This document shows positions 12,350-19,439 of a stretch of 64,000 bases of DNA, one piece after another. The stretch comes from a virus, in IMG/VR virus record IMGVR_UViG_3300009068_000001, positions 1 through 64,000 of that record; one strand, given 5' to 3'. How positions within the stretch are numbered: the first letter of the stretch is position 1; every line of letters starts with the position of its first letter. The notes beneath the pieces are model-generated. The model was given only the letters and a program-made list of their open reading frames with translations. It was not told where the DNA came from and did not search any database. The position numbers and the translations under genes are program-made.

Positions 12350-12451
12350 TTAATCCTCCGGTGTGCTTTCTAGTATACAAATACAGTTACAATCGTCTTT
12401 TTCGCAAATTCCATAATCTAAAACGTGTTTACATTTTCTACAATTACCCAC
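12350..12451 (-). CDS. Cys-rich microprotein (33 aa, GTG start), not in the ORF track
   Basis: MGNCRKCKHVLDYGICEKDDCNCICILESTPED; exactly fills the gap, and its stop abuts the next ATG. Confidence 0.5.
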   Translation of the reverse strand: MGNCRKCKHVLDYGICEKDDCNCICILESTPED

Positions 12452-13358
12452 GCAATGTCCTACGGACTAGAGTCGCAGCATCTGGCAGCTCCACCCCGTA
12501 TGTTTGCTTCTGAGCCTCTGTGTCTATTGCATCTTTATGTTCTTTGATAGATCTTAGAGCCTGAATTACACCGGAACGTTTACCTGCTTGCCATCGATAG
12601 TTGTTAAAGTCGGCATAGCCTGATCCTACCGTACTAAATGCAATGTTGCGATTGTGGTGAATATCGTCATAGAAAGCAACCGCTTGCTCTGCTGCAAGGC
12701 GTAGCTTACGTTCTGCGTTTACACGATATGCTGGGTTAGAAGTACTACGTACTTCGTTTAAAGCATCAGAGTATTTACGAAGCATGTCTTGAGTCATGTC
12801 TTCATCTCGCATAGTTTTTTGTTCCCAAGCACGGCTATATGGTGGTTGAGGATTTTTATCTGGATATACAGTCCAAGTATCAGCTGTTAGATCGTAAGCT
12901 GCGTATGGATTGATATCACGGATATTTGACTGTGGATTTACATAGTATGTAAGTTCATAGCCTTCCCAATTACGGGTGTTAGGCATTAACTCGTCATGAA
13001 ATCCCTCATTAAATGTCTTAGAGATTTCCACATCAGAGTACCCGATGAACTCTGGATTACTCTGACGGAACTTGACGTAATCAATTCCAATCAAACAATC
13101 CAGGTCACCGGGATCTCTTGATGCTTCCCATTGAAACGAAACTCCGGATCCCGCAAGCCATGCATGTGTCCAAGTATGTGGCTCAGCATAGTGCTTAACC
13201 AAATGCTCAAAGAGCATAGTTAGAATTCCAGAGCGTACCCACTCATTGAGGTGGTCAGCTTGAAATAACTTCGGATCTAGGTCAGAAGAAGGCGCACTGA
13301 AGTAGGATGTAGCCCCAGGTGTAATGCTAGGTGCATCCCCATAATTGTTAAAATCCAT
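12444..13358 (-). CDS. Pol-beta superfamily nucleotidyltransferase
   Basis: hAGS-x12-GDLD motif (LAGSGVSFQWEASRDPGDLDCLIG); third acidic residue in YELTYYV. Confidence 0.7.
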   Translation of the reverse strand: MDFNNYGDAPSITPGATSYFSAPSSDLDPKLFQADHLNEWVRSGILTMLFEHLVKHYAEPHTWTHAWLAGSGVSFQWEASRDPGDLDCLIGIDYVKFRQSNPEFIGYSDVEISKTFNEGFHDELMPNTRNWEGYELTYYVNPQSNIRDINPYAAYDLTADTWTVYPDKNPQPPYSRAWEQKTMRDEDMTQDMLRKYSDALNEVRSTSNPAYRVNAERKLRLAAEQAVAFYDDIHHNRNIAFSTVGSGYADFNNYRWQAGKRSGVIQALRSIKEHKDAIDTEAQKQTYGVELPDAATLVRRTLRG

Positions 13359-13409
13359 GCGCTCATTCTCCCTCTTCTTAGTCGTTACGTCTCGGCTTGA
13401 GTGGAGCAG

Positions 13410-13697
13410 TTATGCGCTAGGTGTTGCTTCGTCTTCTGTTTTAGCCTTGCCAATTCCAGCCAAACGCAAAGTAACATACTCTGCTGCGGATTGTGCTTGT
13501 AAATCCATTAGGATTTCGGAGGCATAACGACGCACTTCTAGAAGTGTTGCGTCGCGGTCTACTGATAGAGCAAAGGCTTGCTTATTACGCTCAACGAATA
13601 CGTTTCCGTTTTCATCTACTAGTACTGCAAACCCAAAGTTAATCTTTGGTGCATCTGGAGTAAGTACTGGTGCTTCTGTAGTTTTTTCTTTTGACAT
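13410..13697 (-). CDS. Hypothetical protein (95 aa)
   Basis: ORF in a co-oriented run. Confidence 0.65.
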   Translation of the reverse strand: MSKEKTTEAPVLTPDAPKINFGFAVLVDENGNVFVERNKQAFALSVDRDATLLEVRRYASEILMDLQAQSAAEYVTLRLAGIGKAKTEDEATPSA

Positions 13698-13705
13698 GTC
13701 ATATC

Positions 13706-14287
13706 CTATTCGTATAGTCCGACTTTTTTACGGTTTTGTTCTACTACATAGGTCTTAGCAGGGCAGAAGTCGCAAAGGTAAACCTTTGTGCTAGCAGACT
13801 GTGCTGCGCTTTCCAAGCCTAATTCTTTACGGGCTTCAGCGGTGTTCTTAGGTATAAGGCGCTTACCTTCAATCTTCCAATCATAGCATCCTTCTACAGG
13901 ACGTAAGTGAAGATTAAAACATTTCATGGCATCATCAAAGAATGTTGCCTTAGTAGTATAGTAGTCTGGGTCAATATCTGCAAGTCCGCCACCCACTTTG
14001 TTGCGTAGGTTTTCAATTACTTGCTTACGTACCTCAGGACGTGAGTATAGTTTTACACCGATACTAGATAAGAAACCGGTGTGCTTAATTCCAGCAGACT
14101 CGTGACGATCCACTAACACTTGAAGTGTTACGTCGTCATCAGGGTTACCTTGAAAGTCAGGTAATTCCTCAATAGTCTTGCAGTTATAGCAATACAACAG
14201 ACGAATTTTAGGGCCTTCATCTTTAATCTCAGTATATGTGCCTTCATCGGCAGGATTATTACCCTGTCCAAGAATAGGAATACCCAT
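13706..14287 (-). CDS. Hypothetical Zn-binding protein
   Basis: CYNC and CDFC motifs; AAGGAG SD. Confidence 0.7.
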   Translation of the reverse strand: MGIPILGQGNNPADEGTYTEIKDEGPKIRLLYCYNCKTIEELPDFQGNPDDDVTLQVLVDRHESAGIKHTGFLSSIGVKLYSRPEVRKQVIENLRNKVGGGLADIDPDYYTTKATFFDDAMKCFNLHLRPVEGCYDWKIEGKRLIPKNTAEARKELGLESAAQSASTKVYLCDFCPAKTYVVEQNRKKVGLYE

Positions 14288-14342
14288 AGTGCTCTCCTTA
14301 ATCGGTCTCTTTTATTATTATATACGATTATTGGAGAGAATG

Positions 14343-15038
14343 CTAATTGTCGGGTTTCATTAACCCTTCAAATTCGTCAAAACTATTAGGGGTGCGAGTA
14401 GTTGGATTTCTACGTACTTCTTGGTCCGCAGCTTCAATCTCTTCATCTTGAGTCTTTGGTGCCCCACCAATTTTACGTTTTTTCAATAAAGCTACCGCGT
14501 CAAAAGAAGTTAAAGCTGGAAGATTACGTCCTCCACGTTCAATTGCATTATTTATGACCGGAGTTACATGATCTTCTGTTTGAATTTCAGCTTCTGGATC
14601 TGTAGCTTCTCGTGGATTACCTGGCCCACGAACAGGCATATGAATACCGGTACGAGCAAATATCTCAGCTGCGGCTTCACCGCGGGTGCGTTGACGAGTT
14701 ACACGATCTTCACCACGGATTTCTTCACCAAATTCAGGGCGAACTATCATCATAGTGTCTTTATCGTATAGGTCTGTATTAGGTTCAATTTTGGCCCAAT
14801 GCTGAGAGCAATAGTTCTTAGGTCCTTCTGCGTGCATTAATACACGACGAGATGCGTCTAGGCGGCATCCGCTTTTGCCACATTTAACAGGTTTATCTGC
14901 GTTTCTAACCTTGTGTTTTCTTTGTGTTTCAAATTCTGGTACAACAACTTCTCCAGCTACAACTTCTGTAGTCTGATGAATCTTTTGTTTACCGGCTAAT
15001 GTGCTGTCATCTTCTAAGTTAGCATCTTCTCTAGCCAT
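14343..15038 (-). CDS. Hypothetical protein with a C-x4-C...YCSQH Zn motif
   Basis: ORF track; co-oriented run. Confidence 0.6.
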   Translation of the reverse strand: MAREDANLEDDSTLAGKQKIHQTTEVVAGEVVVPEFETQRKHKVRNADKPVKCGKSGCRLDASRRVLMHAEGPKNYCSQHWAKIEPNTDLYDKDTMMIVRPEFGEEIRGEDRVTRQRTRGEAAAEIFARTGIHMPVRGPGNPREATDPEAEIQTEDHVTPVINNAIERGGRNLPALTSFDAVALLKKRKIGGAPKTQDEEIEAADQEVRRNPTTRTPNSFDEFEGLMKPDN

Positions 15039-15040
15039 AA

Positions 15041-15235
15041 TTATTTACCTTTGCGAACTTGTTCGGCATTCTTTCTAAGATCTTTGTTATCACGAATACC
15101 CATAGTACCGGTAGTATCGTCATCATCTTGGATCCCGCTAGCTTTTACTGCAGCTTCAATTTCAGCTGAGGATACAATGCCGGAACGACGCATATGTTGA
15201 GGACGAGCATTTTCTCTACGAGGTACATTATTCAT
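15041..15235 (-). CDS. Small hypothetical protein
   Basis: Tightly packed ORF. Confidence 0.55.
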   Translation of the reverse strand: MNNVPRRENARPQHMRRSGIVSSAEIEAAVKASGIQDDDDTTGTMGIRDNKDLRKNAEQVRKGK

Positions 15236-15596
15236 CGTGTTTAGCCATCAACTCTCTATTAGCCTTGTCTTCTTTAAACTTACCCATTGAAACAATTCTA
15301 GCGTCTTTACTGCCATCTGCTATACCGTCATTCAAATGATCTGTTCTATCTTTAGCCATCAAAGAATCTAAATGGGCATCAAATCTTTCTGCAACCTCTG
15401 GTGGCATCTTTTCATCATGCTCACTAGGTTCATCAGGCGTTACTTGTTCTGGACCTAAAACAGCGTCTAACATGTTGTTTTTGAACACACGTAAGCGACG
15501 CATTCCCATTCCTGGTAATTGCGTTACATTATTTTCAGGCTTTAAACCCCTGTGTGCTGGGTGATTAGGACCTGGTGTGCCCATGTCGTCGTCCAT
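15228..15596 (-). CDS. Hypothetical protein (122 aa)
   Basis: AAGGAG SD. Confidence 0.65.
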   Translation of the reverse strand: MDDDMGTPGPNHPAHRGLKPENNVTQLPGMGMRRLRVFKNNMLDAVLGPEQVTPDEPSEHDEKMPPEVAERFDAHLDSLMAKDRTDHLNDGIADGSKDARIVSMGKFKEDKANRELMAKHDE

Positions 15597-15608
15597 AATT
15601 ACTCCTTG

Positions 15609-15914
15609 TTAAATTGCGTCAATGCCTTTGCGACCAGGTTCTTGATTAGACCAATCAGCCCCACCAAAACCGCTTCCATAATGAAAACCTTTTGGAGATT
15701 TTTTTTCTGGTTCATTACTTGAATACAAATTCTTTGTATAAGGTTCGTACCCAGTATCACGCTTTGGGTTAGGCGTAGATGACTTAGGATCACTTGAAGG
15801 AGGCATTACACCAGTCTCACGTTTTGGTATAAAGCTAGACGCAGCGGCAGCACCATTACCTGCACGTGAAGCACTTACCTGTGTACGAGACCGTACAAAA
15901 CTTAAAAGACCCAT
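15609..15914 (-). CDS. Small disordered protein with the N-terminal FVRxRxQVxAxRA signature
   Basis: MGLLSFVRSRTQVSASRA. Confidence 0.65.
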   Translation of the reverse strand: MGLLSFVRSRTQVSASRAGNGAAAASSFIPKRETGVMPPSSDPKSSTPNPKRDTGYEPYTKNLYSSNEPEKKSPKGFHYGSGFGGADWSNQEPGRKGIDAI

Positions 15915-15915
15915 T

Positions 15916-16197
15916 TTAGTAGTTAGCGCCCATTTGATTATTAAATGTGTCGGCTACTGGCATTGGGGAGCGTGGCTTTGAAGATGCTGAATCACCAAGT
16001 GGGTTTACCTTTGCTGGTGCTTCTTGATCAATAAAGTCATAGTTCCAATATGGATGTAGTCCACGACGGTTAGCAAGAGTTAGATCCTCACCGCTACCTG
16101 CAGCTACTTCAGTGTTTGGGCGAACCTTACGGTACTTACCGTCTGTTGCGCCTTCTGTTAGTCCACCATTAAGTGAACGAGTTTCGTTAGTTGCCAT
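15916..16197 (-). CDS. Hypothetical protein (93 aa)
   Basis: AAGGA SD; packed. Confidence 0.65.
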   Translation of the reverse strand: MATNETRSLNGGLTEGATDGKYRKVRPNTEVAAGSGEDLTLANRRGLHPYWNYDFIDQEAPAKVNPLGDSASSKPRSPMPVADTFNNQMGANY

Positions 16198-16483
16198 TAT
16201 ATATGTCCTTTATTAGTGGTTTCTTTGTGTGGGGTTTTCTAAGGGTATCGGCAATATGTACGTTTTTTTCGTTTTGCATAAACGGCCGTGCAGGCGAATC
16301 TTCACCCAAACTTTTAGTACGATTTGATATAGACATCTCTGCCCCTAATATATTTACTTTAGACCAACCTGTAGCGTTACCTAAGGCTTTCATAGCAGCT
16401 TGATGTCCAGCAATACCTTGTTCCATTGCACGATCAGCTTTTACTTGCTTACGGGCACGAACAAATCTATCTAAAGCTTTCAT
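16187..16483 (-). CDS. Small protein with the N-terminal FVRxRxQVxAxRA signature (true start likely 16483)
   Basis: MKALDRFVRARKQVKADRA; ATG 1 nt after the upstream stop. Confidence 0.6.
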   Translation of the reverse strand: MKALDRFVRARKQVKADRAMEQGIAGHQAAMKALGNATGWSKVNILGAEMSISNRTKSLGEDSPARPFMQNEKNVHIADTLRKPHTKKPLIKDIYNGN

Positions 16484-16484
16484 T

Positions 16485-16733
16485 TTAATCGTCACCATAG
16501 CTTCGTAAACGATATTCATTTCCTGCCGGTGCTTTGCGCTCTTCATAATTTGAAGTTGTAGAGTTTACAGAGTCATAGTTCCCTAGTGGTTTAGGTTTCT
16601 TACGATCCATTAATTCTTTATTGCTTGGAGAACCAACTGTATGGGTTGGAGCATCCCAATCAGGTTGACCAGACTCTGTAGCACGAGAAGCGGTTACTTG
16701 CTTGCGTGGTCTTACGAACTTAGATAGTCCCAT
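16485..16733 (-). CDS. Small disordered protein with the N-terminal FVRxRxQVxAxRA signature
   Basis: MGLSKFVRPRKQVTASRA. Confidence 0.65.
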   Translation of the reverse strand: MGLSKFVRPRKQVTASRATESGQPDWDAPTHTVGSPSNKELMDRKKPKPLGNYDSVNSTTSNYEERKAPAGNEYRLRSYGDD

Positions 16734-16882
16734 TACTTTTTCGCCTTCTTCTTTGGAGTTTTTTTCTTGGCTTCTTTAGCCTTGAGTTCTTCTCTAATCT
16801 TATCTTCAGGCGTTTTAGCCTTAAGCTTTTGAACCTTATAGTCCATAGGTTTACCCTGCGGAGTAAGAATCTTTTTAGCCAT
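16733..16882 (-). CDS. Lys-rich microprotein (49 aa), not in the ORF track
   Basis: MAKKILTPQGKPMDYKVQKLKAKTPEDKIREELKAKEAKKKTPKKKAKK; AAGGAG SD; TAATG coupling. Confidence 0.65.
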   Translation of the reverse strand: MAKKILTPQGKPMDYKVQKLKAKTPEDKIREELKAKEAKKKTPKKKAKK

Positions 16883-16903
16883 AGTTATATTGTCTCCTTT
16901 ATT

Positions 16904-17101
16904 TTACTTTTTGTCAGGGTTATGGTACTTACGAACCCTTGGACGAATTACTTTTTTCCCTCTAGCATGACTGGTTTTCTGCCGTCTTTTGGTAGATGCC
17001 ATTCTAGATCCAGGCTCTAGGCTTGAAGATACGCCACCAGTCCAGGTGCCTGTGGATCTACGTTCCCAGCTATCTACTGAAGTAAACTGTTTGCCTTTCA
17101 T
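16904..17101 (-). CDS. Basic hypothetical protein (65 aa)
   Basis: ATGA overlap with the upstream gene. Confidence 0.55.
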   Translation of the reverse strand: MKGKQFTSVDSWERRSTGTWTGGVSSSLEPGSRMASTKRRQKTSHARGKKVIRPRVRKYHNPDKK

Positions 17102-17328
17102 GAGTTCATGAACCCCTTTGCATGTTTTTCATACCTTGCATTTCTGCAGTTAGGGCAAAGTTCTCCCCCGGCATACATAACTTCAAGAGGTGTCATCATA
17201 TGACCACACTTAGGGCAAATACGACTACCTTCATAGACAGTTTCAATGTTAATCTCATCCACAGTTGCATCCTCCAGAGGTATCTCTAAGACTGCTGCAA
17301 CCTCTACATACACCTGAAGAGACCGCAT
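17098..17328 (-). CDS. Small Zn-ribbon protein (start uncertain)
   Basis: CPKC...CPNC. Confidence 0.6.
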   Translation of the reverse strand: MRSLQVYVEVAAVLEIPLEDATVDEINIETVYEGSRICPKCGHMMTPLEVMYAGGELCPNCRNARYEKHAKGFMNS

Positions 17329-17491
17329 TAATATGATGTTCGGTTATATTTCTAGTTCCTTTAAGACTTTTTATATATCCCAGTTTACCTGAATCCATCC
17401 AACGCCCAATAGTTTTAGGGTTTACGCTAAAAAGCGTAGCAACTTCAGATGGTTTATATATTTTTGTAAAAGATTCAGGATTTTCACTCAT
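17255..17491 (-). CDS. BldC-like MerR/Xis-type helix-turn-helix regulator with a Cys tail
   Basis: YKPSEVATLFSVNPKTIGRWMDSGKLGYIKSLKGTR resembles BldC LTPAEVATMFRVDPKTVTRWAKAGKL...TLGGHR. Confidence 0.7.
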   Translation of the reverse strand: MSENPESFTKIYKPSEVATLFSVNPKTIGRWMDSGKLGYIKSLKGTRNITEHHINAVSSGVCRGCSSLRDTSGGCNCG

Positions 17492-17850
17492 TACCACACA
17501 CTCTCTGATACGTTTCGAGCTGTTCCAGAGTAGGAACCCTTTTCTTGGGTAAAGTCTACACGATTTGGTTGGAATTCATTATTTACATCCATAACATCTA
17601 GTATGCCTAGCTCACGTGTACGGTATCCGTAACGTGGTGGAAACATATTGACTTGTGGAAGTGGTGGCCTAACAATGTCTGGAATTAATTGGGCCGGCAT
17701 AGTTACAGATTTAAGTGCACGGGCCATGAAAGCTTCTTGAGCGTTAGCAAAAGGACCCATGTAATCATAGCGAAGTAATGATGGTTCTGGATCTTCGCTT
17801 ACAATCCCACGACCTTTACTATGGTCATATACACCATCTTGATTCATCAT
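17491..17850 (-). CDS. Hypothetical protein (119 aa)
   Basis: TAATG coupling on both sides. Confidence 0.65.
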   Translation of the reverse strand: MMNQDGVYDHSKGRGIVSEDPEPSLLRYDYMGPFANAQEAFMARALKSVTMPAQLIPDIVRPPLPQVNMFPPRYGYRTRELGILDVMDVNNEFQPNRVDFTQEKGSYSGTARNVSESVW

Positions 17851-18581
17851 TAGCGGCCTCGTCGTGGTCTGTTAGGATCTAAAAAGTCTGTGGTGTCAGG
17901 AGCTGTACTTTCTACAGGCTTCATCTGACCAAACTTAATTGGGTTTGCTACATTTGATCCTAATCCGGTAATTCTACCTTGCAGGTCACCAGTAGCTGGA
18001 TCATCTTCACTCTGGTATCGAACTCCATATACTAAACGAGTATGAATATCTTTGTTACCTGGGTGAGGTTGATTTTCTAGATTGCCTGGATTTAAACCTT
18101 GCTTGCGTTGTTCATCTAAACCGCGCAAAGCGTTTTGATGTCTTTCGTTCCAAAGTTTATATCTTGCTCCAAAAGCTAACTGTTCACCAGTTTTCTTTTC
18201 AGGAGGTAAATGTGCGCCTGATTTAATTGCAAAGTGATTAACAATATCTTTCATTGAAAAATATACACGAACAGATTGTGGTGCCGAACCACTCTTTTTG
18301 TCAACATAGTGAGGTACTTCTTGGTACGCAGCTTCTTTAAAATTAGGTTCATGTGATATACCTAGATGCGGAGCTACATCGTGTGTAGTTAAAAACGGAA
18401 TACCTTCTCGGTCTAAAGGACGTGGTGTAGCACGGGTTGTTTCTGTATTTGGTTCAACAGGAGTTACAGGACCATAACCTCGTTCGCCTGGTCTAGGGTC
18501 TTGTGGTCTTTCTACAGGCTTAGAAGACTGTCCTTCAATAGCTGCCCATGGGGGCATAGGAACACCTCTGCGACGTGTCAT
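17850..18581 (-). CDS. Pro-rich hypothetical protein (243 aa)
   Basis: TAATG coupling. Confidence 0.65.
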   Translation of the reverse strand: MTRRRGVPMPPWAAIEGQSSKPVERPQDPRPGERGYGPVTPVEPNTETTRATPRPLDREGIPFLTTHDVAPHLGISHEPNFKEAAYQEVPHYVDKKSGSAPQSVRVYFSMKDIVNHFAIKSGAHLPPEKKTGEQLAFGARYKLWNERHQNALRGLDEQRKQGLNPGNLENQPHPGNKDIHTRLVYGVRYQSEDDPATGDLQGRITGLGSNVANPIKFGQMKPVESTAPDTTDFLDPNRPRRGR

Positions 18582-18853
18582 TAATCGTTGCCCCCTAAAC
18601 TATCATTATGCATTTTCATAGATTCTTTGAAATGTGAATCACGTCCAAGTTCAGTTTCTTGATCTTGAAGCATACCGGCGCTACACTCTGTGCATTCAGC
18701 ACCATGACCCATATTATTAGAAAACTTACTTACTCCTGTAGGGGTAAGCTTAGTTAATCTTTTTCCAACAGCATGTGCTGCTTTCCAATTCCATTCAGAA
18801 TCATGAGATCCTGTATCTTTTTCTTGATCGTAAAAATCTGACACTATACCCAC
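18581..18853 (-). CDS. Hypothetical protein (90 aa)
   Basis: Packed ORF. Confidence 0.55.
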   Translation of the reverse strand: MGIVSDFYDQEKDTGSHDSEWNWKAAHAVGKRLTKLTPTGVSKFSNNMGHGAECTECSAGMLQDQETELGRDSHFKESMKMHNDSLGGND

Positions 18854-19389
18854 CTTGGTTTTAAGTGAGCAAATAGTGCTCCGGTACGAGGATTAAATTC
18901 TGCAGGTACATTTGCTGATACATCAGCCTTGCCATCATTAACAAGATGAGGTGCTGGAGCTAAGGCTAGTTGAGGAGCGTTACGCACACCCATCATTACT
19001 AGTGTGCCTTCATTCTCTATAGGCTTATAGATCTTAGGATTTAAACGACGATCTGGTTCTAAATTCTCTGGCCACATGTATGATCCTGGATCAATACGTT
19101 CGCCTTTGTGAACACCTCGTTGGTATGCACGTTGGTTCTGTCGGTTTTTTAATGAGTCAAGAACTGTGTCGGACATTGCATAAGGCTTTCCCTTATCATC
19201 ACGACGTGATCGAATAGTTCCAAGATAACCGTCTGGGTATTCTGCTTGAGGTGCACGACCTACACCCATACGTGCAAAGTCCATACCACTTCGTGGTACT
19301 ACGGGCGTGCCTCCACCACCGGTGGTTGTATAAGCACCGATGTAACCGCTGGCTCCGAGATACTGCCAGTTATTATGGGATTGAGGCAT
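18844..19389 (-). CDS. Hypothetical protein (181 aa), first gene after the terminator
   Basis: ORF track. Confidence 0.7.
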   Translation of the reverse strand: MPQSHNNWQYLGASGYIGAYTTTGGGGTPVVPRSGMDFARMGVGRAPQAEYPDGYLGTIRSRRDDKGKPYAMSDTVLDSLKNRQNQRAYQRGVHKGERIDPGSYMWPENLEPDRRLNPKIYKPIENEGTLVMMGVRNAPQLALAPAPHLVNDGKADVSANVPAEFNPRTGALFAHLKPRWV

Positions 19390-19412
19390 GGTTACATAAT
19401 ACTACTAAAAGC

Positions 19413-19439
19413 AAAAGGCCGGGGTGTGTATCCCCGGCC
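19413..19439 (-). terminator. Rho-independent terminator
   Basis: GGCCGGGG/CCCCGGCC stem followed by TTTT on the minus strand. Confidence 0.75.

Follow-up and report, generated by a model that had tools for sequence, protein, structure and literature searches.

A locus-bound family of small, predicted disordered phage proteins with a common basic N-terminus and variable tails

The DNA analysed here is a stretch of 64,000 nucleotides (the window), which makes up the first 64 kb of the IMG/VR virus record IMGVR_UViG_3300009068_000001, a genome of 99,805 bp with direct terminal repeats. On the minus strand of the window, between positions 15609 and 16733, lie three small genes, here called A, B and C, whose predicted products begin with the signature FVRxRxQVxAxRA. 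A preliminary description of this DNA had reported the signature at the N-terminus of three otherwise unrelated small proteins, and all three N-termini were found in the sequence as quoted. This N-terminus is referred to below as the head, and the remainder of each protein as the tail. The genes and their heads are as follows (aa, amino acids):

16485..16733, minus strand: gene A, 82 aa, with head MGLSKFVRPRKQVTASRA
16680..16733, minus strand: head of A (codons 1-18)
16187..16483, minus strand: gene B, 98 aa, with head MKALDRFVRARKQVKADRA, followed by a conserved GIAGHQAAMKAL segment and a fast-evolving tail
16427..16483, minus strand: head of B (codons 1-19)
15609..15914, minus strand: gene C, 101 aa, with head MGLLSFVRSRTQVSASRA
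15861..15914, minus strand: head of C (codons 1-18)

The start of A overlaps by one base the stop of the lysine-rich gene upstream of it (TAATG). The longest open reading frame (ORF) in the frame of B begins at 16546 and the methionine assigned to B lies at 16483; the latter is the likely start, because an orthologue at the related locus L009, which has no A gene upstream, still begins MKALD. The tail of A carries the islands PSNKELMDRKKP and a C-terminal YRxxSYGDD, and that of C the island GAAAASSF, islands of the PKRExG type and a C-terminal GRKGIDAI.

A, B and C are members of an undescribed, locus-bound family of small phage proteins that are predicted to be intrinsically disordered, and the head is the sole element common to the whole family. 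A search profile built from 18 N-termini (alignment A2) and run against 1.84 billion cluster representatives gave 84 matches at E <=1e-3, 23 of them at <=1e-10. One match, internal to a 716-aa repeat protein (P0070), was treated as false. The remaining 83 representatives are 46-205 aa long (median 92) and carry the motif at the N-terminus without exception; the methionine is residue 1 in 73 of them, and the other 10 have an upstream extension introduced by the gene caller. No Pfam domain was found in any of the 83, and A, B and C had no match in PHROGs, Pfam or PADLOC. When ten sequences were looked up, nine clusters were found, all of them metagenomic, with one member labelled 'hypothetical protein'; the exact 98-aa sequence of B was not present in the cluster collection searched. 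Likewise, literature searches on capsid-targeting sequences (CTS) and internal proteins, on freshwater actinophages and on phage BRock yielded no description of the family.

To compare loci, 42 related ones (41-95% identity) were collected through the conserved neighbouring gene p119. With an iterated hidden Markov model of the head, 19 genes scored below E 1e-3, namely the three in this genome and 16 in 10 of the 42 loci (L005-L013 and L019), which represent 15 distinct sequences, those of L010 and L011 being identical. There are one to three copies of the motif gene per locus, and degenerate, weak forms of the motif occur in L018 and L045. The profile search that the preliminary description had proposed has thus placed the head in relatives, both in these 10 loci and, always at the N-terminus, in the 83 cluster representatives. 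A natural head-truncated variant was noticed at L008:6246-6437, where a B-type gene keeps ...SSRATEQGIAGHKAAMDAL... without the first half of the head, the profile matching its positions 14-32 only.

The threefold occurrence of the motif is far beyond chance. A six-frame scan with the strict motif found three occurrences in the window and the same number in the whole 99,805-bp genome, and relaxed patterns gave no further matches there. The back-translated pattern matched three loci among all IMG/VR contigs, two of them by chance (internal or in stop-filled frames) and one as a true N-terminal copy in a syntenic relative. In 596 Gb of cellular genomes it matched 33 loci, close to what we estimate to be expected by chance for a pattern of about 35 bits; 24 of these encode the peptide motif, never at an N-terminus, and the remaining nine match the degenerate DNA pattern and not the peptide. 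Cellular homologues or prophage copies were rejected on these grounds.

The consensus of the 18-residue head is M-G-[LI]-x-[SKN]-[FY]-[VI]-R-x-R-K-x-V-x-A-x-R-A, with a net charge of +3 to +5. Positions 8 and 10 are arginine in 83/83 representatives (the expression used for anchoring allowed R or K there), and the other most conserved residues are V13 (82 of 83), R17 (82), A15 (81), A18 (77) and K11 (73), together with F or Y at position 6 (70). Selection on the head acts at the amino-acid level. R8 is written with five codons and V7, A18 and Q12 with two or three, the dominant codons at R10, V13, A15 and R17 are those preferred by the genome, and the heads of paralogues differ by synonymous codons at 3-8 of their 7-15 identical residues. 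The ratio of nonsynonymous to synonymous substitution rates (dN/dS) of the head is 0.10-0.37 in six of seven orthologue pairs, the seventh (C versus L013) having a value of 1.04. A cause at the nucleotide level, such as RNA structure or recent gene conversion, was rejected, since synonymous codons vary and follow the codon preference of the genome.

A secretion signal (Sec/Tat) or membrane anchor was also rejected. No segment of this kind follows the head in the 87 proteins examined, none of which reaches a hydrophobicity of 1.6 in a 19-residue Kyte-Doolittle window; a 12-residue window reaches 1.5 in three, twice in a mis-called upstream extension and once at the C-terminus.

The tails were compared by alignment of subfamily profiles with hhalign, which joined A to B over columns 1-25 (probability 98.5%), C to B over columns 1-19 (95.8%) and C to A over columns 1-22 (97.7%), and found no alignment among the A, B and C profiles beyond column 25. 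The full-length homology that plain duplication would leave, considered in the preliminary description, is thus not what is found. That description had the sequences diverge completely after about residue 18, which holds among paralogues within these column limits and does not hold among orthologues, whose tails keep conserved islands. Its impression that the tails look disordered agrees with AlphaFold2 models made with the subfamily alignments of A and B, in which the predicted template modelling score is 0.18 for A and 0.23 for B and the predicted local distance difference test (pLDDT) of the tails is 52-66. Within these low-confidence models the heads are the most confident parts (pLDDT 72-77). 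Residues 2-37 of B are modelled as one helix (pLDDT about 75) and the head of A, which contains Pro9, as coil, so that the two head conformations differ.

Grouped by BLASTP similarity, the 83 tails, which are 28-187 aa long, give at least 15 classes with no links between them. The tails of A and C are clearly under purifying selection in close orthologues (dN/dS 0.23-0.28 for A and 0.11 for C, the genes of the backbone described below having 0.06-0.07), and more distant A and C pairs give 0.55-0.69. B combines a tight head (0.10-0.18) with a fast tail (0.56). Each subtype has islands of its own: PSNxELM and a C-terminal [YLT]GDD in A, PKRExG and a C-terminal ID[AR]I in C, and GIAGH in B. The C-terminal [YLT]GDD is present in six tails and ID[AR]I in five. 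Other short modules cross the subtypes, at frequencies well above those expected from shuffled sequences: G.GH[VIA] in 18 tails (0.42 expected), [IV]P[AG]GSK in seven (0.01 expected) and [DG]RHKPT in four (0 expected).

The best-conserved tail element of the family is a composite of about 22 residues, GxGHVxV-IPAGSKPxTxKNSD, which recurs near the C-terminus in different subtypes (P0041, P0049, P0068, P0065, P0054 and others) and has no known match. A further module was noticed outside the family: the N-terminus of p90 (window 18581-18853, minus strand) begins ...FYDQEKD, and family members of other phages (L018, L020, P0012, P0067) end in a module of this YDQEKD type, so that short modules seem to be reused outside the family within the operon.

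The organization of the locus involves the following further genes:

16904..17101, minus strand: very basic protein of 65 aa, an upstream neighbour conserved in relatives
16733..16882, minus strand: lysine-rich protein of 49 aa, directly upstream of slot 1
15916..16197, minus strand: MATN93, 93 aa, a conserved backbone gene between the two hypervariable slots (dN/dS 0.07)
15041..15235, minus strand: p64, 64 aa, beginning MNNVPRRE (found with a regular expression and by eye), a head of the VPRRE type

Along the minus strand the order is 65-aa basic protein, 49-aa lysine-rich protein, A, B, MATN93, C, a 122-aa protein and p64, and the run is tightly packed, with start/stop overlaps or gaps of 1-12 bases. 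All the related loci have in common a backbone consisting of p181, p119, a zinc ribbon protein, the basic 65-aa protein, slot 1, MATN93, slot 2, Cys193, p95, p304, p154 and DpdA. The motif genes are confined to the two slots flanking MATN93, and both the content of the slots and the position of the genes vary from phage to phage. In the full contigs of five relatives (43-89 kb), the nine profile matches are all clustered at this locus, in a span of about 1 kb, in five of five cases. Streptomyces phage LuckySocke keeps the backbone and has no motif genes. Its equivalent of slot 2 (L049:7848-8965) is occupied by genes for two secreted hydrolases of the cell wall, one an NlpC/P60-like 'peptidase' and the other, as judged by eye, an Rpf-like protein with LysM, which argues that the slots are general plasticity zones accepting unrelated accessory genes.

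In more distant relatives, the slots hold small proteins with a VPRRE-like basic start, 18 unique ones if p64 is included. Two pairs of sequences show that the FVR and VPRRE heads are positional equivalents. The FVR-headed protein of L010 and one of L034 align from residue 19 through to their ends with 57% identity (E 1e-35), an alignment that leaves out both heads, and the FVR-headed P0053 is 45% identical over 191 aa (E 2e-41) to a protein of L030, in which the start of the VPRRE type gives a weak alignment with the latter half of the FVR head. A third candidate pair, L018 versus L020, was discarded as too weak, the match being limited to a C-terminal YDQEKDK (E 5e-5). The head is therefore the conserved part within a close clade, and between clades it changes more than the tail does, a pattern that would fit an interface tracking a partner. 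By its start, p64 is a probable fourth, diverged member of the family carrying the second head type; it has no match to the FVR head profile.

As for its wider setting, the phage has a contractile tail, the sheath, tube and baseplate genes of which lie at 45-58 kb, and replication genes at 27-41 kb; a ribonucleotide reductase (RNR) gene and a DpdA-like gene are found at 8.3-11.9 kb, and the terminase, an SPP1-type portal, a scaffold-like gene and the major capsid protein at 77-84 kb. The scaffold-like gene (257 aa), between the portal and capsid genes, was assigned from its position alone. The genome also has a whiB gene (PF02467, 45.4 bits), which an excerpt of PMC10914622 presents as an actinophage marker in freshwater metagenomes, and this uncultured freshwater phage probably has an actinobacterial host. 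Its closest cultured relatives are the BRock-like Streptomyces phages, with a capsid identity of 72-73%.

A, B and C are located in a non-structural stretch that runs from p181 to RNR and in which p304, which reads as nucleotidyltransferase-like (atlas 0.98), is followed by the DpdA-like and RNR genes. There is a GC hairpin with a T-run before p181 and another after RNR, a placement that would fit a single non-structural transcription unit including A, B and C. Sites of the sigma-70 type were not enriched (16, as against 23.7 in shuffles), and a search for a common intergenic word found none.

Taken together, these data suggest, at a rough probability of 40%, that the head is a fold-on-binding docking peptide for a common protein partner and that the tails are adaptors or effectors built of linear motifs. 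The head would fold on binding and tie each paralogue to one common protein of the infected cell, of host or phage origin. The tails, as chains of short linear motifs, would give each paralogue a different second contact, and the set of paralogues would thereby form interchangeable adaptors or effectors co-expressed with the DNA-metabolism genes of the phage. That the head binds, that its partner is the same for all paralogues and that the tail motifs are binding sites is what we infer. Aromatic, aliphatic and small residues of the head are conserved along with the arginines, a mix that in our view points to a specific protein interface more than to charge as such.

The preliminary description had seen in the head a portable addressing peptide that brings variable cargo into the capsid or to a common host target. 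The first half of this idea fares well, with one peptide on at least 15 tail classes, constraint on its amino-acid sequence and orthologous tails that bear either of two head types; the capsid as destination fares badly, as discussed below. The word cargo does not suit the tails either: with a known domain in none of the 83 members, they are better described as disordered chains of short motifs than as folded payloads.

Several observations weigh against the docking-peptide interpretation. Nucleic-acid binding would agree just as well with the strong net charge of the head, and the AlphaFold2 confidence of the head is only moderate. The paralogous heads within a genome are 0.60 identical, compared with 0.57 for pairs of different type between genomes (permutation p about 0.2), so that concerted evolution of the heads within genomes, which was considered as a candidate, is not significant. 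The dN/dS of 0.56 in the B tail implies that not every tail need carry a function. The genome has FVR heads on A, B and C and a VPRRE head on p64, and the coexistence of the two types makes one address per phage too simple. Finally, A, B and C are known as predicted genes, and the docking partner is putative.

It is also possible, although we consider it unlikely, that the head is an address label delivering shuffled, disordered 'mimicry' effectors to one hub, either the virion interior or a central host machine. If the hub were the virion interior, unfolded and ejection-ready proteins would enter the next host with the DNA, and the lineage-specific FVR and VPRRE heads would mark switches of specificity. 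Such a system would be a phage counterpart, in the form of a modular tag plus tail, of the linear-motif hijacking practised by viruses of eukaryotes.

The basic nature of the head leaves a low probability for a nucleic-acid anchor, in which its arginine- and lysine-rich arm would bind DNA or RNA of the phage or the host and the disordered tails would act from there, as modelled on the N-terminal arginine-rich motif of lambdoid N proteins or on histone-H1-like tails. The net charge, with three invariant arginines and K11, is in line with such an anchor, and so are the adjoining lysine-rich 49-aa and very basic 65-aa proteins, the continuation of the operon into DNA-modification and nucleotide-metabolism genes, and the small size and predicted disorder of the proteins, which resemble lambda N in this respect. 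However, the arginines are fewer than in classical arginine-rich motifs, and V13, A15, A18 and the aromatic position 6 are strictly conserved; no repeated genomic word stands out as a multi-copy RNA or DNA target, in what is a weak test; and three to four paralogues per genome are not what is expected of one regulator.

Equally, we regard it as unlikely that A, B and C form an ordinary old paralogue family in which the first 18-35 residues are the functional core, for instance a small inhibitory peptide, and the tails, extensions under weak constraint, have drifted to the point of no longer being recognizable. In favour of this, the genes form a tandem array tied to one locus, the heads track their own gene lineage (0.71 identical among orthologues and 0.57-0.60 among paralogues), B-type members go down to 46-47 aa and, again, the B tail evolves fast. 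Against drift stand the purifying selection on the A and C tails (0.11-0.28), the subtype-specific terminal motifs that are kept and the short modules common to several subtypes, and the better conservation of the tail than of the head between clades is the opposite of what a head-only function predicts. Were this explanation correct, annotation would still gain a new and cleanly defined protein family.

Capsid targeting, by which the head would load the proteins into the prohead or onto the packaged DNA for ejection into the next host, appears quite improbable. The T4 CTS ends in a prohead-protease site of the L/I-x-E type. In this family there is no invariant acidic or cleavage-type residue after A18 (E occupies position 20 in only 48 of the 83 members and is missing from the C type), and no prohead protease family was found in the 104 ORFs scanned, a scan that a very divergent protease might escape; the peptidase-type matches were confined to an HslV-like protein, an M23 domain in a tail protein and an endolysin. 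The capsid protein aligns from residue 19 to the 356-position family profile, which leaves no room for a delta domain, and only the scaffold-like gene lies between the portal and capsid genes. Moreover, the motif is on no gene of the head module, from which the family genes are separated by about 60 kb, in an operon with nucleotidyltransferase-like, DpdA and RNR genes.

In favour of this role, the pattern is that of the T-even internal proteins, a highly diverse set of small proteins from variable loci with only the N-terminal CTS in common (PMC3012670, in excerpt), the locus is hypervariable and the tag strictly N-terminal, and disordered basic chains would, in our view, pass the tail channel easily. 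Yet the CTS-bearing proteins of T4 include folded inhibitors (PMC3012670, in excerpt), whereas no enzyme or known domain was recognized among the 83 members here. The failure to find a protease or a cleavage site thus weighs against targeting in the T4 sense, and uncleaved packaging remains compatible with the data, as for P1 DarB, of which the N-terminal 30 residues suffice for capsid targeting according to an excerpt of PMC9024508.

That the head acts as an N-terminal degron, recognized by a host AAA+ protease or by the HslV-like peptidase of the phage, or as a leader peptide for post-translational modification, is highly improbable: the strict N-terminal position, the HslV/proteasome-family peptidase encoded in the genome and the combination of a conserved leader with a variable remainder, as in precursors of modified peptides, speak for it, but the HslV-like gene is 75 kb away with no link to the family, and the likeness to precursors of ribosomally synthesized and post-translationally modified peptides does not extend to this locus, where Pfam, PHROGs and PADLOC reveal no modifying enzyme and the tails, of 28-187 aa, are not short cores rich in Cys, Ser or Thr.

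The design of a common N-terminal tag with a variable body is known from T4, P1 and the encapsulins; the disordered, motif-mosaic bodies and the two flavours of head are new. As in the T4 internal proteins, a short N-terminal peptide is found here on otherwise unrelated proteins of variable loci (two slots, 42 loci), and unlike them these proteins come from a non-structural operon, without a detected prohead protease or cleavage-type end of the head, and have as bodies disordered motif chains with no known domain. In encapsulin systems, short terminal cargo-loading peptides dock unrelated folded enzymes to a dedicated shell; the short terminal peptide on unrelated proteins is similar in our case, in which the only shell is the phage capsid and the tails are disordered.

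The lambdoid N antiterminators are small, disordered, non-structural proteins with a basic N-terminal anchor, the rest of which carries short binding segments. They resemble the present proteins in size, disorder, non-structural nature and basic N-terminus, but each is the product of one regulator gene, whereas this genome has three FVR copies plus p64 and relatives have one to three; the head also has fewer arginines and keeps certain hydrophobic and small residues strictly, and the weak test of repeated genomic words brought up no hairpin as its cognate. P1 DarB, a single 250-kDa enzyme, carries its portable address in about 30 residues at the N-terminus (PMC9024508, in excerpt). An N-terminal address would be what it has in common with this family of small disordered proteins, a likeness drawn by description only.

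With regard to their bodies, the proteins resemble adenovirus E1A and similar proteins of eukaryotic viruses, which are disordered chains of short, shuffled and independently conserved motifs. What differs here is the tandem family with a common N-terminal tag, and we know of no such families in the E1A-type class; the literature searched yielded no description of that class in phages either.

If the head is a portable docking tag, it would provide an experimental handle on abundant, uncultured lake phages. One peptide could serve to fish out the common partner, and the tails would list other host functions touched by the phage. It would also mean that the shuffling of short linear motifs along disordered chains is a mode of evolution open to phages as well as to viruses of eukaryotes, and one that domain-based annotation misses completely, as the lack of Pfam matches in all 83 members illustrates. 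In addition, the 18-residue tag might be put to use, in the way of the T4 and P1 signals, to direct foreign proteins in phage systems of actinobacteria.

Some additional observations were made around the locus and elsewhere in the genome. About ten backbone proteins encoded at window positions 12444-19389, including p181, p119, MATN93, Cys193 and p95, have no Pfam, PHROG or PADLOC match, although they are conserved across the 42 related loci and partly in BRock-like Streptomyces phages; many are poor in hydrophobic residues, and p304 is the only one with a functional reading, the nucleotidyltransferase-like one given above. An atlas lookup of Cys193 gave nothing (0.88), and sequence searches of the PDB with four backbone neighbours gave no match below E 0.3. 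A perfect 8-bp GC hairpin followed by a T-run (window 19407-19439, minus strand) is located about 30 bases upstream of the start of p181, in the leader of the long p181-to-RNR operon, and could be an attenuator, a processing site or a bidirectional terminator.

Between p119 and the basic 65-aa gene, an 80-aa HTH_17/MerR-like ORF with a GTG start (17255-17497) overlaps by 74 bases a 76-aa zinc-ribbon ORF (17098-17328). Relatives have a shorter zinc-ribbon gene or both genes, and the starts of the two ORFs in the window are uncertain. GC content along the window is 36-47%. On the minus strand of the remaining part of the genome, at 91658-92227 (L048:11658-12227), lies the HslV/proteasome-family peptidase gene (phrog_1040, E 2.6e-24; PF00227, 28.9 bits), and near it a gene for an Hsp20 small heat-shock protein (L048:13261-13761; phrog_432, E 3.6e-32), so that an HslV-like peptidase and Hsp20 occur together in a phage without a recognisable prohead protease.

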